NCBI GenBank assembly: GCA_040905425.1
Contig: JBBDRO010000026.1
Location: forward strand, 1-50,674
Length of the DNA stretch: 50,674 bases
Source of the DNA: Gemmatimonadota bacterium
GTDB lineage: Bacteria > Gemmatimonadota > Gemmatimonadetes > Longimicrobiales > RSA9
Reading direction: 5' to 3'
The notes beneath the pieces were generated by a model. It was not told the DNA's origin, did not search any database, and saw nothing but the letters and a program-made list of their open reading frames with translations. The stretch's first letter is position 1, and every line of letters starts with the position of its first letter. Shown piece after piece: positions 23,712 to 30,206 of this stretch. The position numbers were made by a program, and so were the translations under genes.

Positions 23712-23772
23712 TTGACGGAACCCCCCTTGGGAGCGAAGTTGGTTAGGTGAAACTCCCCCAGGAGGATTGAAA

Positions 23773-24102
23773 ATGGCATCGGCAAGCGCGCCAACGTTCA
23801 GCGGTATGTCTTCCGTCCGCAGGAGGGGAGGAGTTGCTGGCGACCGCCCCAGGAAGGTGGGCTGGCAGGTCAGCCAGTCGGTCGCGGAGGCGGTGAAGGA
23901 GGCGGTCGAGAACGGCGCTGCGGAGAGCCAGAACGCCTTCGTCGAAAATGCCCTGCTCCGTCGCCTGAAGGAATTGCGCCGTGACAGGATCTACTCTGCC
24001 TATGAGGATGCAGCGCAGGACCCGGTTTTCATGGCAGATATGCGCAGCACCAGCCAAGCGTTCAGCGTTACGGTGAGCGACGGCCTTGAAGCCGGGGGCT
24101 GA
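23773..24102 (+). CDS. Antitoxin with ribbon-helix-helix-like domain
   Basis: GGAGGA RBS; strand-helix-helix pattern RKVGWQV / SQSVAEAVKEAVENG / SQNAFVENALLRRL; lies directly upstream of the PemK toxin. Confidence 0.75.
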   Translation: MASASAPTFSGMSSVRRRGGVAGDRPRKVGWQVSQSVAEAVKEAVENGAAESQNAFVENALLRRLKELRRDRIYSAYEDAAQDPVFMADMRSTSQAFSVTVSDGLEAGG

Positions 24103-24107
24103 GACGG

Positions 24108-24491
24108 ATGGCGCATCAGGGTCCCGTTCGCCGCTGGGAGATCTATTGGGTGGACCTGGAGCCGGCCGTAGGAAGGGAACAGGCCGGTGATCGCCGGCCG
24201 GCCGTCGTGGTTTCGAACGACGGTTTCAATCACATTTTCGACATCGTCACGGTCGTCCCGATGACGAAGCGAAAGGGCAAAAAGCGTCGGGTCTACCCTT
24301 TTGAGGTCCTGGCACCCGACCTCCTCGGCACCGGCCAAGAAAGCATTCTCATGCCGCAGCAGGTCCGCACGATCTCTAAACTGCGCCTCCTCGAGCGTGG
24401 CGGCGTGCTAGAGGACCCGGCAATTCAGATCGATCTCGAAAACCGGCTCCTCGAGCATCTCGGCATCGACTTCGAGGCGGACGGGTTGTAA
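24108..24491 (+). CDS. PemK/MazF family toxin (endoribonuclease)
   Basis: RRWEIYWVDLEPAVGREQAGDRRPAVVVS...VTVVPMT...QVRTISKLRL. Confidence 0.93.
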   Translation: MAHQGPVRRWEIYWVDLEPAVGREQAGDRRPAVVVSNDGFNHIFDIVTVVPMTKRKGKKRRVYPFEVLAPDLLGTGQESILMPQQVRTISKLRLLERGGVLEDPAIQIDLENRLLEHLGIDFEADGL

Positions 24492-24507
24492 GCCGGCACC
24501 CCTCGTC

Positions 24508-24537
24508 TTGACACTACCAACACCCCACCCCTACCGT
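24508..24537 (+). promoter_or_regulatory. Sigma70 promoter of the metH leader
   Basis: TTGACA-N18-TACCGT, about 15 nt before the aptamer. Confidence 0.7.
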
Positions 24538-24551
24538 ACACCCATGTCGTA

Positions 24552-24630
24552 CGGCGGAGATTTGCTGGCCGCTTGCCACCGCCGGGCAGGCAACGACGTG
24601 CGTTGCCGCCATTCAAAGGTCTAAAGTGCC
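24552..24630 (+). ncRNA. SAM-II-like riboswitch aptamer with an extra hairpin in the long loop
   Basis: P1 cggcgg (24552-57) pairs with ccgccg (24579-84); conserved GAUUUG (24559-64), UUGC (24573-76) and CUAAAG (24621-26); pseudoknot ggccgcuug / cuaaagugcc; upstream of metH. Confidence 0.8.
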
Positions 24631-24679
24631 GGGAAAGATCGCCGCCCCGCCCGCGCACCGCGTGTGGCCTGGCCCTTCC

Positions 24680-24713
24680 GCCCCGCACTTTGACCGCGGG
24701 GCTTCGCGTTTCC
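24680..24713 (+). terminator. Leader terminator-like hairpin (riboswitch expression platform)
   Basis: gccccgc-actttgacc-gcggggc followed by an imperfect U-rich tail, ttcgcgtttcc. Confidence 0.6.
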
Positions 24714-24744
24714 GGCCCCGCTCACGAACGCTGAATCGAGAGTC

Positions 24745-27700
24745 ATGGGCCGCCCCAGCTACACCGACGTACTGACCCGCCGCGTCCTCGTCTTCGACGG
24801 CGCCATGGGCACCAGCCTGCAGAATCTCCAGCTCACGGCCGCCGACTTCGGCGGGGAGGCGCTGGAGGGCTGCAATGACCACCTGGTCCTCTCCCGCCCC
24901 GACGCCGTGGAGAGCGTGCACGCCTCCTTCCTGGAGGTGGGCTGCGACGTGCTGGAGACGGACACCTTCCGCGCCAACCGGCTGACGCTGAAGGAATACG
25001 GCCTGCACGAGCGGGTGCTGGAGATGAACCGCGCCGCCGCCCGCCTGGCGCGCGGCGTGGCCGATCGCTTCGCCACCGCCGCGCACCCCCGCTTCGTGGC
25101 AGGCAGCATCGGCCCCTCCGGCTTCCTGCCCGCCACCTCGGACCCCACGCTGGGCAGCGTGGGCTACGCCGAGCTGGTGGACGTCTTCCGCGAGCAGGCG
25201 GTGGGTCTCATCGAGGGCGGCGTGGACGTGCTGCTCATCGAGACCAGCCAGGACATCCTGGAGGTGAAGGCGCAGATCGTGGGCATCCGCCGTGCCCGCG
25301 AGGAGACCGGCGTGCACCTGCCCATCCAGGCGCAGATCACCCTGGACGTCACCGGCCGCATGCTGCTCGGCACGGACATCGGCGCCGCCACCACCATCAT
25401 CGAGGCCATGCGGGCCGACGTCATCGGGCTGAACTGCTCCACCGGTCCCGAGCACATGCGCCAGCCCGTGCGCTGGCTGAGTGAGAACGCGCGCCTGCCG
25501 ATCAGTGTCATTCCCAACGCCGGCATCCCCCTGAACGAGGGTGGGGAGGCCGTTTACCCGCTGACGCCCGAGCAGCTGGCCGACGCGCACGAGCACTTCG
25601 TGAAGCACGAGGGTGTGGCCGTGGTGGGCGGCTGCTGCGGCACCACGCCGGAGCACATGCGGCTGGTGGTGGAGCGGGTGGGGCAGGGCACCGCCGCGGG
25701 CGGCGCGCGTCTGAGCGCCAGCAAGCGTTCCCCGCGCGTGGTGCCCCGGGCCGCCAGCGCCATGACCGCCTTCGACCTGGCCCAGGACCCGCCGCCCACC
25801 CTCATCGGCGAGCGCGTCAATTCCCAGGGCTCGCGCGCCGTGAAGCGCCTGCTCCTGGCCGACGACTACGACGGCATCCTGGAGGTGGGCCGCGGCCAGG
25901 TGGAGGGCGGCGCCCACCTGCTGGACGTCTGCGTGGCGCTCACCGAGCGCCAGGACGAGGCCGACCAGATGAGCGCCGTGGTCAAGCTGCTCAGCCAGGG
26001 CGTGGAGGCGCCGCTGGTGCTGGACACCACCGAGGCGGACGTGGTGCAGGCCGCCCTGGAGAAGTGTCCCGGCCGCGCGGTCATCAATTCCATCAACCTG
26101 GAAAACGGCCGCGCGCGGATCGACAGCGTAGTGCCGCTGGCCGTGGAGCACGGCGCCGCGCTCGTGGCCCTCACCATCGACGAGGAGGGCATGGCCAAGA
26201 CGGCCGCCCGCAAGGTGGAGATCGCGCGCCGCATCCACGACATATGCGTCAACGAGTACGGGCTGGAGAGCGGCGACCTCATCTTCGACGACCTCACCTT
26301 CACCCTGGCCACGGGCGACGAGGAATTTCGCCGCAGCGCCGTCGAGACGCTGGAGGGCATCCGCCTCATCAAGAGCGAGCTGCCCGGCGTGCTCACCTCG
26401 CTCGGTGTCTCCAACGTCTCCTTCGGCCTCTCCAAGGCCGCGCGCGCCGTGCTGAACTCCGTCTTCCTGCACCAATGCGTGGAGGCCGGCCTGGACATGG
26501 CCATCGTGAACCCCGCGCACATCACGCCCTACGCCGAGATCGACGACGAGCAGCGTCGGCTGGCCGACAACCTGATCTTCGATCGAAGCGACGATGCCCT
26601 GTCCCGCTTCATCGCGTTCTACGAGAGCCACACGGCCGACGAGGATTCGGACGTGGACCCCACCGAGGGGATGAGTCCCGAGGAGGCGGCCCACTGGCGC
26701 ATCCTGCACCGCAAGAAGGACGGCATCGAGGAAACGGTCGACGCCGCCATCGCCGAGCACGGCGGCGATCACGCCGCCGGGGTGCACGTGCTGAACCAGG
26801 TACTGCTGCCGGCCATGAAGGAGGTCGGTGACAAGTTCGGCGCCGGGGAGCTGATCCTGCCCTTCGTGCTGCAGTCCGCCGAGGTTATGAAGCGGGCCGT
26901 GGCGCGCCTGGAGACGTACCTGGACAAGGTGGAGGGCCAGAGCAAGGGCATCGTGGTGCTGGCCACCGTCTATGGCGACGTGCACGACATCGGCAAGAGC
27001 CTGGTCAACACCATCCTCTCCAACAACGGCTACACGGTGCACGACCTGGGCAAGCAGGTGCCCGTCAACACCATCATCGAGAAGGCCCAGGAGGTGGGTG
27101 CGGACGCCATCGGCCTGTCGGCGCTACTCGTCTCCACCTCCAAGCAGATGCCCCTCTGCGTGCAGGAGCTGGCCACGCGCGGGCTGAAGTACCCGGTGCT
27201 CTGCGGCGGAGCCGCCATCAACCCGTCCTTCATCCGCAACGCCGCCTACCTGGACCGGGAGGCTGACCAGGTCTACGAGCACGGCGTGTGGTACTGCAAG
27301 GACGCCTTCGAGGGGCTGGCGGCCGTGGAGGTGCTGGCCGATCCGGAGCGTCGCGGGGCGTTCACGGCCGAGCGGCTCACGGACATCCGCGAGGGCGTGG
27401 CCCGCCGCGAGGCCCTGGAGGCGAAGGCGCGCGCCAGCCGGCCAGCGGGCGGCGCCCGGCCGGAGCGCGATCCGGCGCTCGTCCCAGCCGCTCCCTTTCA
27501 GGGCCGCCGGGTCATCGAGCGGCTCCCCTGGGAGAAGCTCTTCCACCACATCGATCTGAACACGCTCTACCGTCTCCACTGGGGCGCCAAGAACGCCAAG
27601 GGTGAAGCGTACGAGCGCATCGTGCGCGAGGAGTACGAGCCCCGCCTGGCGCGCATGAAGGCGGACGCCCTGGAGGGCACCTGGGACCACCCCCGTGCCG

Positions 27701-28233
27701 TCTACGGCTACTTCCCCGCCGCCGCCGAGGGTGACGAGCTGGTGATCTTCGACGCGGCAGACCCCGGCGTGGAGCGAGGTCGCTTCCCATTCCCCCGGCA
27801 GGCGGATCGCGACGGCCTGTGCCTCACCGACTACTTCGTGGAGAACCGGAAGGGCGCCCGCGATGTCGTGGCGCTGCAGGTAGTCACCACCGGCGACCTC
27901 ATCCTGGAGCGCTCCGAGGCCATGATGAAGGAAGGGGAGTACACGGAGGGCTACTACCTGCACGGCTTCGGCGTGCGCCTGGCCGAGGCGGGCGCCGAGC
28001 ATGTGAACGCGCTGATCAGAAAGGAGCTCGGCCTGGGCGCCGGACGTGGCCTGCGCTACTCCTGGGGCTACCCGGCCTGTCCCGAACCCCTGCAGCACGA
28101 GCTGGTCTTCGAGCTGCTGGGCGCGCAGGAAGCGCTCGGCATGGAGCTCACCACCGCGGGTGCGCTGGTCCCCGAACTCTCCACGGCGGCCATCGTGGTC
28201 CACCATCCCGACGCCAAGTACTTCAGCCCATGA
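24745..28233 (+). CDS. metH: Cobalamin-dependent methionine synthase
   Basis: DGAMGT, GLNCSTGP and GGCCGTTP (Hcy domain); IGERVN and GVSNVSFG (pterin domain); GDVHDIGK and GLSALL (B12 domain); RYSWGYPACP (activation domain). Confidence 0.97.
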   Translation: MGRPSYTDVLTRRVLVFDGAMGTSLQNLQLTAADFGGEALEGCNDHLVLSRPDAVESVHASFLEVGCDVLETDTFRANRLTLKEYGLHERVLEMNRAAARLARGVADRFATAAHPRFVAGSIGPSGFLPATSDPTLGSVGYAELVDVFREQAVGLIEGGVDVLLIETSQDILEVKAQIVGIRRAREETGVHLPIQAQITLDVTGRMLLGTDIGAATTIIEAMRADVIGLNCSTGPEHMRQPVRWLSENARLPISVIPNAGIPLNEGGEAVYPLTPEQLADAHEHFVKHEGVAVVGGCCGTTPEHMRLVVERVGQGTAAGGARLSASKRSPRVVPRAASAMTAFDLAQDPPPTLIGERVNSQGSRAVKRLLLADDYDGILEVGRGQVEGGAHLLDVCVALTERQDEADQMSAVVKLLSQGVEAPLVLDTTEADVVQAALEKCPGRAVINSINLENGRARIDSVVPLAVEHGAALVALTIDEEGMAKTAARKVEIARRIHDICVNEYGLESGDLIFDDLTFTLATGDEEFRRSAVETLEGIRLIKSELPGVLTSLGVSNVSFGLSKAARAVLNSVFLHQCVEAGLDMAIVNPAHITPYAEIDDEQRRLADNLIFDRSDDALSRFIAFYESHTADEDSDVDPTEGMSPEEAAHWRILHRKKDGIEETVDAAIAEHGGDHAAGVHVLNQVLLPAMKEVGDKFGAGELILPFVLQSAEVMKRAVARLETYLDKVEGQSKGIVVLATVYGDVHDIGKSLVNTILSNNGYTVHDLGKQVPVNTIIEKAQEVGADAIGLSALLVSTSKQMPLCVQELATRGLKYPVLCGGAAINPSFIRNAAYLDREADQVYEHGVWYCKDAFEGLAAVEVLADPERRGAFTAERLTDIREGVARREALEAKARASRPAGGARPERDPALVPAAPFQGRRVIERLPWEKLFHHIDLNTLYRLHWGAKNAKGEAYERIVREEYEPRLARMKADALEGTWDHPRAVYGYFPAAAEGDELVIFDAADPGVERGRFPFPRQADRDGLCLTDYFVENRKGARDVVALQVVTTGDLILERSEAMMKEGEYTEGYYLHGFGVRLAEAGAEHVNALIRKELGLGAGRGLRYSWGYPACPEPLQHELVFELLGAQEALGMELTTAGALVPELSTAAIVVHHPDAKYFSP

Positions 28234-30206
28234 GCCACACCCTGCTGGACCTCATCCACGATGACCGACCGCACGTCTTCGACGGCGCCATGGGCACCAT
28301 GCTCTACGCACGCGGTGTCTACATCAACCGCTGCTTCGACGAGCTCTCGGTGCGCGACCCCGACCTCGTGCGCGGCGTCCACAGCGCCTACCTGAAGGCC
28401 GGCGCCGAGATCATCGAGACCAACAGCTTCGGCGCCAACCGCGTGAAGCTGGCCGAGTACGGCCTCGAGGACCGCGTGGCCGAGCTGAACGAGGCCGCCG
28501 CCCGCGTGGCGCGCCAGGCCGCCGGTGAGCAGGCGCTGGTGGCGGGCGCCGTGGGCCCGCTGGGGATTCGCATCGAGCCGTATGGCCCCACCTCCCTGGA
28601 CGAGGCGCGCGGCTTCTTCCGCGAGCAGATCGAAGCCCTCATTGCCGGCGGCGCCGACTGCATCCTGCTGGAGACCTTCCACTCCCTGGACGAGATCGAG
28701 CAGGCGCTGCTGGCCGCGCGTGACGTGGGCACCCTGCCCGTGATCGCCCAGATGACCATCCAGGAGGGTGGCAAGACCGCCTTCGGCACCACGCCCGAGA
28801 CATTGGCCGCGCGCCTCGATGCCTGGGACGCGGACGTCATCGGGCTGAACTGCTCGGTCGGCCCGGCGGGCATCCTGAGCGCCATCGAGCATCTGGCCGC
28901 CGGCACCGAGCGCAAGCTCTCCGCCCAGCCCAATGCCGGCCTGCCCCGAGAGGTGGCCGGGCGCAAGATGTACATGGCCTCGCCGGAGTACATGGCCAAG
29001 TTCGCGCAGCGCCTCATCCGCTCGGGCGTCAAGTTCGTGGGCGGCTGCTGCGGCACCACCCCCGAGCACACCAAGCTCATGGCCGACGCCGTGCACGCCC
29101 TGCACCCCCGGCGCACCGTGACCGGCGTCCACACAGAGCTGTCCAGCGCCGCCCCCCGCGAGCCCAAGCCGCTGGCCGAGCGCTCGCGCTGGGGCCGCAA
29201 GCTGGCGGCCGGCGAGCTGGTCACCACCGTGGAGATCGTGCCCCCGAAGGGCATCACCCCCGCCAAAATGCTGGCGGGCGTCCGCCTGCTCAAAGCGGCA
29301 GGCCTCGACGGCGTCAACGTCCCCGACGGCCCCCGCGCCCAGATGCGCATGGGCGTCCTCCCCACCGCCACCCTGGTCGAGCAGGTGGTGGGCATCGAGG
29401 CCGTGGTCCACTACTGCTGCCGTGACCGCAACCTGCTCGGCATGCTGAGTGACCTCCTCGGCGCCCACGCGCTCGGCCTCCGCAACCTGCTGCTCATCAC
29501 CGGGGACCCGCCGAAGATGGGCCCCTACCCCGAGGCCACCGCGGTCTTCGACATCGACGCCATCGGCCTCACCAACATGGTCTCGCGCCTGAACCGTGGC
29601 CTGGACCCCGGCGGAAACGCCATCGGCGAGCCCACCAGCTTCACCATCGGCGTGGGCGTCAATCCCGGCGCGTTGGACCAGGATTACGAATTGAACCGCT
29701 TCTACTGGAAGGTGGAGGCCGGCGCCGAGTATGCCATCACGCAGCCCGTCTTCGACGCCGAGCAGCTGCTCGCCTTCATCTCGGAACTCGAGCGCCGCGA
29801 CCTGCGCATCCCCATCGTGGCCGGTATCTGGCCACTGGTGAGTGCCCGCAACGCCGAGTTCCTGGCCAATGAAGTGCCCGGCGTCACGGTCCCCGCCCCC
29901 ATCCTGGAGCGCATGCACGCCGCCACCGCCCGCGGCAAGGAGGCAGCCCTGGAGGAAGGCATCGCCATCGCCCGCGAGATGTTCGCCGAGGTGCGCCACG
30001 CCGTGCAGGGCCTGCAAGTGAGCGCCCCCTTCGGCAAGGTGCCCTTCGCCCTGAGGGTCTTCGAGGGCATCGAAGGCATCCAGACGCTGGCCGACCTCTC
30101 CGAAGTGGAGGTGGACGGCGAACGCTTCGGCTTCGCGCCGCCCTCGCGGAGGGAAGTGGTCGAGAACGCCGGCGGTCAGCCGCTCGGAGCGTCCCCGGGA
30201 GCGTAA
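28230..30206 (+). CDS. Bifunctional homocysteine S-methyltransferase / methylenetetrahydrofolate reductase (YitJ-like)
   Basis: N-terminal DGAMGT, GLNCSVGP and GGCCGTTP; C-terminal MTHFR VEIVPPKG, CRDRN, ITGDPP and KVEAGAEYAITQPVFD; ATGA overlap with metH. Confidence 0.93.
   Translation: MSHTLLDLIHDDRPHVFDGAMGTMLYARGVYINRCFDELSVRDPDLVRGVHSAYLKAGAEIIETNSFGANRVKLAEYGLEDRVAELNEAAARVARQAAGEQALVAGAVGPLGIRIEPYGPTSLDEARGFFREQIEALIAGGADCILLETFHSLDEIEQALLAARDVGTLPVIAQMTIQEGGKTAFGTTPETLAARLDAWDADVIGLNCSVGPAGILSAIEHLAAGTERKLSAQPNAGLPREVAGRKMYMASPEYMAKFAQRLIRSGVKFVGGCCGTTPEHTKLMADAVHALHPRRTVTGVHTELSSAAPREPKPLAERSRWGRKLAAGELVTTVEIVPPKGITPAKMLAGVRLLKAAGLDGVNVPDGPRAQMRMGVLPTATLVEQVVGIEAVVHYCCRDRNLLGMLSDLLGAHALGLRNLLLITGDPPKMGPYPEATAVFDIDAIGLTNMVSRLNRGLDPGGNAIGEPTSFTIGVGVNPGALDQDYELNRFYWKVEAGAEYAITQPVFDAEQLLAFISELERRDLRIPIVAGIWPLVSARNAEFLANEVPGVTVPAPILERMHAATARGKEAALEEGIAIAREMFAEVRHAVQGLQVSAPFGKVPFALRVFEGIEGIQTLADLSEVEVDGERFGFAPPSRREVVENAGGQPLGASPGA

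Follow-up and report, generated by a model that had tools for sequence, protein, structure and literature searches.

A riboswitch of the SAM-II class (SAM-II or 'long loop' type) very probably controls, by transcription attenuation, an operon made of metH and of a gene fusing homocysteine S-methyltransferase to methylenetetrahydrofolate reductase (HMT/MTHFR) in the window, i.e. the whole stretch of 50,674 nt of Gemmatimonadota DNA that was analysed. Computed support for this reading comes from the conserved motifs, from covariation in P1 and in the pseudoknot, from the conservation of promoter, hairpin, terminator and antiterminator among Gemmatimonadota, and from the likeness to the Rfam SAM-II models. 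The regulated genes are genes of the methionine/SAM cycle. From these data we infer that the RNA binds SAM, in which direction it switches and how efficient the weak terminator of the window is. A first-pass annotation of the same DNA had proposed a SAM-dependent transcriptional OFF switch in a lineage outside the Proteobacteria, and this proposal is supported by the presence of the element in 17/17 loci, by covariation, and by the recurrence of the terminator hairpin (16/16 copies) and of the antiterminator (15/16 copies).

All the elements described below lie within the 253-nt interval between a PemK/MazF-type gene (24108-24491) and metH (24745). The latter (24745-28233, + strand) encodes a cobalamin-dependent methionine synthase of 1162 aa, in which five Pfam domains were recognized: S-methyl_trans, Pterin_bind, B12-binding_2, B12-binding and Met_synt_B12. 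The second gene of the operon (28230-30206, + strand, within a mechanically delimited ORF at 27819-30206) starts at an in-frame ATG at position 28230 and carries the Pfam domains S-methyl_trans (4.9e-74) and MTHFR (5.3e-32) expected of the HMT/MTHFR fusion, an organization which we take to resemble the yitJ arrangement of Bacillus. Since this ATG overlaps the metH stop codon as ATGA, the riboswitch probably controls both genes; the ORFs located beyond the fusion gene are on the minus strand. On the other side of the interval, 17 nt separate the end of the PemK/MazF-type toxin gene (+ strand, Pfam 2e-22) from the -35 box of the promoter. Just before the toxin gene is an ORF of 111 aa (23767-24102, + strand) that is a candidate antitoxin by its position and for which no Pfam match was found at E<=0.01.

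Relatives of this leader were collected through a search of genome contigs in which residues 1-352 of MetH served as query and which returned 80 loci (designated below by L numbers). The closest loci, at 64-78% amino-acid identity, were from Gemmatimonadota MAGs, many of them labelled Longimicrobiales, an order that the NCBI taxonomy places in the phylum Gemmatimonadota and the FCB group. The FCB group also includes Bacteroidetes. Among the 22 loci labelled Gemmatimonadota, five were cut at the 5' end of the gene and were left out, and all of the remaining 17, for which upstream sequence was available, displayed a SAM-II-type element upstream: 15 full copies of the variant seen in the window, one copy cut by a contig end (L007) and one canonical copy (L021). 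The 15 full copies were found with a regular expression and scored 48-95 bits with R1, a covariance model of our own built from an alignment containing both the window and L008; the truncated copy of L007 reached 23.6 bits. The element precedes metH in 13 of the full-copy loci, as it does in L007 and L021. In the other two, L001 (1071-1149) and L002 (1102-1230), riboswitch and terminator are located before metK, identified by its three S-AdoMet synthetase domains (Pfam), and metH follows directly. With R1, the 50.7-kb window yielded no second copy of the element, and the 58 metH loci from outside Gemmatimonadota yielded no copy at all.

Upstream of the aptamer, sequence reading revealed a promoter-like site (24508-24537, + strand), composed of a TTGACA -35 box (24508-24513), an 18-nt spacer and a weak -10 box, TACCGT (24532-24537). 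The arrangement of TTGACn, a 16-19-nt spacer and an nAnnnT box occurs 34-50 nt before the start of the alignment in 14/16 copies, but the -10 box is poor and a scanner for consensus promoters and terminators made no calls in 24000-25200. Transcription from this site would start a few bases before P1.

Region 24552-24633 displays all the hallmarks of SAM-II, namely P1, GAUUUG, GCUUGC, CUAAAG and the pseudoknot, each of them at the place indicated in the first-pass annotation or at most one base away. The P1 module (24552-24584, + strand), delimited on the basis of covariation and invariant columns, is closed by the pairing of cggcgg (24552-24557) with ccgccg (24579-24584) and surrounds the L1 motif GAUUUG (24559-24564), the 5' strand of the pseudoknot and the GCUUGC motif (24571-24576). 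The 3' part of the aptamer (24611-24633, + strand) consists of an A-rich linker, the CUAAAG motif (24621-24626) and the 3' strand of the pseudoknot, in which 24624-24632 pairs with 24565-24574.

Pairing was evaluated in an alignment, A2, of 16 sequences (the window and 15 loci); the truncated L007 copy was kept outside the pair counts, as was L021, which had been misaligned in an earlier alignment, A1. The six pairs of P1 were paired in 100% of the cells, and three of them had changed on both sides (7 cells). The eight pairs of the pseudoknot were paired in 94.3% of the cells, with one compensatory replacement of G-C by A-U, in L008, and two pairs varying between C-G and U-G; the support is weaker here than for P1 because the pseudoknot strands are nearly invariant. 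Taken together, these 14 pairs were formed in 96.8% of the cells, as against 37-53% once the 3' partners had been slid, and the observed covariation was reached by 0/500 shuffles, a significance that is overstated because the sequences are related. Covariation in relatives, which the first-pass annotation had put forward as a check, was therefore found as compensated changes both in P1 and in the pseudoknot. An additional pair joins the base that opens GAUUUG and the base that closes GCUUGC (A2 columns 13 and 34; 24559 and 24576 in the window), two positions that covary perfectly: 12 copies have G-C and four, those of L001, L002, L009 and L017, have C-G, giving the variant CAUUUG/GCUUGG. This implies a putative closing pair inside P1. 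With it, the 15 annotated pairs were formed in 97.0% of the cells in register and in 39-53% when slid, and again 0/500 shuffles attained the observed value.

Directly after the 3' strand of P1, folding predicts the additional hairpin announced by the first-pass annotation (24585-24610, + strand), a 26-nt element of 10 bp with one bulged A and a 5-nt loop. Together with the linker on its 3' side, its folding energy is -16.9 kcal/mol, which was reached by 0/300 shuffles. A hairpin occupies this insert site in 15/16 copies, and the inserts, which are unrelated in sequence, measure 25-75 nt with the linker counted in. The shortest insert is that of L001 and the longest that of L002, at about 60 nt and predicted to be branched, whereas L008 is a natural copy without insert that shares its pseudoknot tail and terminator arm with the other copies. 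This natural series of inserts, from about 0 to 60 nt at one and the same site of the pseudoknot loop, shows how much this loop can tolerate. A different placement was produced by cmscan, which located a 28-nt insertion inside the P1 loop and took GCCGCC (24605-24610) as the 3' strand of P1; it was rejected because in the relatives the P1 3' strand directly follows GCUUGCnA and covaries at that place.

Recognition of the element by the curated Rfam models was poor. Scanning of the whole window with Rfam 15 yielded no match at gathering level, and a permissive scan of 24400-24850 returned SAM_alpha (RF00521) alone, with 10.8 bits (E=9.3) for a cut-off of 36, while RF01726 gave nothing at E<=10 for the window. 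The first-pass annotation had named a covariance-model search as a check and the lack of a hit as evidence against its own reading, and on formal grounds the window thus speaks against it. As a consequence, the case for the identity of the element rests on its relatives. The window does align with SAM_alpha over the full length of the model (positions 1-79), and its shortfall in score coincides with the 28-nt insertion of that alignment. The core letters correspond to the consensus in the cmscan alignments of the window to SAM_alpha and of L008 to both Rfam SAM-II models. L008 reached 39.2 bits on RF01726, the 'SAM-II long loop' model (cut-off 44), and 33.9 bits on RF00521 (cut-off 36), with an E value of about 2.5e-6 in a search of 251 nt. 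The canonical L021 obtained 40.6 bits with SAM_alpha, above the gathering score of 36, and was the sole one of the 17 Gemmatimonadota loci to do so. At the other extreme, L001, with its short insert and its CAUUUG/GCUUGG variant, was recovered by neither RF00521 nor RF01726 at E<=10. With R1, L008 and the window scored 48.3 and 80.0 bits, respectively, a fit that is given by construction, both being in the alignment behind this model.

Scores below the Rfam cut-offs could also be those of a diverged SAM-II look-alike serving another ligand, for instance SAH or another metabolite of the methionine cycle, or of a chance GC-rich match, and the obligatory insert, together with the CAUUUG/GCUUGG variants of four copies, does depart from the Rfam consensus. 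Such an origin is nevertheless highly improbable: L1, GCUUG and CUAAAG are invariant in the 16 copies and the same as in both Rfam consensuses (the invariant columns of A2 include AUUUG and GCUUG, and the positions of the full GAUUUG, GCUUGC and CUAAAG motifs are invariant or nearly so), the genes concerned are metH, metK and MTHFR, and covariation excludes chance. L008 and L021 moreover are natural intermediates that connect the clade to SAM-II.

Downstream of the aptamer, a GC-rich spacer of 46 nt (24634-24679, + strand), folded on itself in the minimum free energy (MFE) structure, is longer than the 14-35 nt found at this place in the 15 relatives. It is followed by a terminator-like hairpin (24680-24713, + strand) that was recognized by folding and by comparison with homologues. 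Its stem GCCCCGC/GCGGGGC (24680-24686 with 24696-24702) has 7 bp and a 9-nt loop, for a predicted energy of -14.2 kcal/mol, and precedes an imperfect U tract, UUCGCGUUUCC (24703-24713), which is interrupted and weak. That the scanner called no terminator here is in part due to the 9-nt loop. A GC-rich hairpin is located 14-46 nt after the aptamer in 16/16 copies, and it is followed by a run of at least four U in 13/16, the exceptions being the window, L001 and L010. Conservation is unusually high in the 5' arm of this hairpin (CCCCG-CAC, with UU often coming next), whose sequence complements the invariant tail of the aptamer, AAAGUGCCGGG.

The conservation of this hairpin also bears on whether the switch might act mainly on translation by masking the ribosome-binding site, either directly or indirectly, in the way that certain SAM-II/SAM-V elements from Proteobacteria and marine sources do. 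Sequestration of the Shine-Dalgarno sequence by SAM-II does exist, as described in the available text of Scheuer et al. (2022, PMC9373788). In the window, however, the aptamer ends at 24633 and the metH ATG stands at 24745, so that 111 nt separate them by sequence reading (the first-pass annotation had estimated about 115 nt). Among the relatives, terminator and start codon lie at widely differing distances from each other and the sequence in between is unconserved, the terminator hairpin being conserved instead. A mainly translational control is accordingly a very unlikely account of the leader.

The complementarity between aptamer tail and terminator arm provides the antiterminator. Its 5' strand (24618-24633), which contains the whole 3' strand of the pseudoknot (24624-24632), pairs with 24681-24695 in both RNAduplex and the MFE fold, forming 14 bp with two bulges at -21.1 kcal/mol. 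Complementarity between ggtc(t)aaagtgc (24618-24629) and gcactttgacc (24685-24695) had been noticed in the first-pass annotation and is indeed present, but the 11 bp counted there fall short of the full pairing, which reaches deeper into the terminator 5' arm. As the antiterminator takes up the whole terminator loop together with five of the seven 5' arm bases, the two folds exclude each other, as had been claimed.

The strength of this pairing was compared with several backgrounds. In the window, -21.1 kcal/mol was reached by 0/1000 shuffles of the target half, and the duplex is the strongest of the 16 copies. Over both strands, 79 of 101,316 segments of 16 nt reached the same value; they fall into 29 distinct sites. 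Two of these are the real site and the trivial antisense self-site, which leaves 27 others with -21.1 kcal/mol or less on the two strands of 50.7 kb. By our own arithmetic, the chance of such a site within about 110 nt before a start codon is roughly 1.5-3%. By itself, the complementarity in the window is thus only moderately unusual; more weight attaches to its conservation in relatives. When the aptamer tail was paired with the 5' half of the terminator, the best duplex was below the shuffle mean in 15/16 copies, L012 being worse than the mean; it was at or below 5% of the shuffles in 6/16 copies, the other 10 not being individually so. The conserved part of the duplex pairs GUG(C)..GGG with CCC..(G)CAC. 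When the leader was folded as far as the U tract, the MFE structure, which contains the antiterminator, came to -74.7 kcal/mol and the best structure with the terminator enforced to -73.8 kcal/mol. The two states are thus predicted to be nearly isoenergetic, and a balance of this kind is what a switch requires.

These elements can be assembled into a mechanism. The aptamer would be an H-type pseudoknot (P1, L1 GAUUUG and the pairing of 24565-24574 with 24624-24632), into which an inert, variable hairpin is placed between the P1 3' strand and the A-rich linker. When SAM is bound, the pseudoknot would hold the strand AAGUGCCGG, the GCCCCGC/GCGGGGC hairpin could form, and transcription would stop near 24703-24713 (OFF). 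When SAM is absent, 24618-24633 would pair with 24681-24695, the terminator would be lost and the polymerase would read into metH (ON). The parts predicted to be protected by SAM under this attenuation model are GAUUUG, GCUUGC and CUAAAGUGCC.

An additional pairing of the terminator 3' arm complicates the situation in the window. This arm can also form an alternative hairpin, H2 (24696-24721, + strand, -14.8 kcal/mol), with a second copy of GCCCCGC at 24714-24721, and H2 is found together with the antiterminator in the MFE fold. No equivalent of H2 was seen in the folds of the 15 relatives. The sensor could in this case be a genuine SAM-II-type one whose terminator has decayed in the window, with control exerted through Rho, through mRNA stability, or through a relay of the GCGGGGC arm between 24680-24686 and 24714-24721 that alters access to the start region. 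The interrupted U tract, the silence of the scanner and the stability of H2, which equals that of the terminator, are all compatible with such a decay, and the available text of PMC9373788 describes effects of SAM-II on RNA stability and translation, besides termination, in S. meliloti. Against it, clean U runs follow the same hairpin in 13/16 homologous leaders, no Shine-Dalgarno or start-codon pairing is conserved, and the 3' arm of H2, which has no counterpart in relatives, emerges from the polymerase only after the U tract and therefore should not block termination. Decay of the terminator consequently appears improbable, and H2 might stabilise the read-through state.

The preferred reading, attenuation by a SAM-II-type riboswitch, relies on a mechanism that is not new in itself. 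According to the text available for Corbino et al. (2005, PMC1273637), SAM-II promoters are usually a few nucleotides before P1 and many of these riboswitches are associated with intrinsic terminators and act as OFF switches; the hosts named there are alpha-proteobacteria, a few other proteobacteria and the Bacteroides group. The metA element described in that report (SAM_alpha, RF00521) and the element of the window have in common the single P1 and H-type pseudoknot, the GAUUUG, GCUUGC and CUAAAG cores and, as far as its available text goes, the promoter near P1, the methionine/SAM gene context and the terminator-type OFF reading. They differ in the 26-nt hairpin after the P1 3' strand, in GC-richness, in the Gemmatimonadota host and in score (10.8 bits for a cut-off of 36). 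'SAM-II long loops' (RF01726) were reported from Bacteroidetes and marine samples by Weinberg et al. (2010, PMC2864571), whose published alignment, in its available part, is variable immediately beyond the 3' strand of P1, where some members carry hairpin-forming inserts, one of them of about 90 nt. The insert site is thus the same as in the window. Most of the published sequences, which are AU-rich, lack an insert, whereas in Gemmatimonadota a hairpin is present in 15/16 copies and the tail GUGCCGGG is GC-rich and doubles as antiterminator strand. The metZ and metA SAM-II riboswitches of Sinorhizobium meliloti, for which the available text of Scheuer et al. (2022) describes Rho-independent terminators and short leader RNAs at high SAM, likewise have an aptamer followed by a terminator, in another phylum and before other genes.

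The novelty attributed to the switch in the first-pass annotation has to be reduced accordingly. The host is a member of Gemmatimonadota and lies outside the Proteobacteria, but both the terminator platform (PMC1273637) and the insert site (PMC2864571) already figure in the portions of these reports that were available. A search of the literature for SAM-II in Gemmatimonadota found none, and 'Gemmatimonad' is absent from the main text of McCown et al. (2017, PMC5473149). What is new is the existence of a SAM-II clade that escapes both curated Rfam models, with 1/17 loci at gathering score. Genome annotation therefore leaves the regulation of metH and metK blank in this phylum, a detection gap for which the 16-sequence alignment could seed a better model. 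The value of the element lies in annotation, in phylogeny and in the series of insert lengths. In addition, its nearly invariant aptamer tail, which is also the antiterminator strand, illustrates clearly how two constraints can bear on a single strand.

A further possibility is that the Gemmatimonadota elements constitute a lineage-wide SAM-II subtype, characterized by an obligatory hairpin after P1 and by a tail, GUGCCGGG, that has co-evolved with the CCCCG-CAC arm. The window would then be a three-hairpin relay with a decayed U tract and H2, and not a two-state attenuator. The post-P1 hairpin would perhaps set the order of folding or the time window for SAM capture. We regard this proposal as doubtful.

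In some loci from other phyla, metH or its neighbourhood carries a different regulatory RNA. SAM-I (S-box, RF00162) was detected, with 75-91 bits, upstream of or near metH in 8 of the 23 loci that were scanned with Rfam among the 58 from outside Gemmatimonadota (L020, L022-L025, L028, L031 and L035). These loci were mostly labelled Chloroflexi/Anaerolineae, with one Rubrobacter (L023), and in six of the eight the riboswitch stands some 90-200 nt ahead of metH. In those phyla, control of this gene by SAM is thus exerted through a riboswitch of another class: the SAM-I leaders of Chloroflexi-labelled loci share the gene and the ligand logic with the leader of the window, and have an unrelated fold, a four-way junction versus a pseudoknot.

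Repeated sequences were also observed upstream of several metH genes. The best score obtained with R1 among the 58 loci from outside Gemmatimonadota (13 bits, L037, 2240-2400) was rejected as a riboswitch, the region being one of tandem repeats. In this Phototrophicaceae locus, repeats of about 70 nt with GATTTGTCGGACA-like units are located upstream of metH. Purine-rich tandem repeats with units of 7-8 nt occur just before the metH start in L001, L006, L009, L010 and L016, and the window is without them. In all five loci these repeats lie between the terminator and the start of metH, and in L001 (about 2380-2480) five and then seven copies of the unit follow each other.
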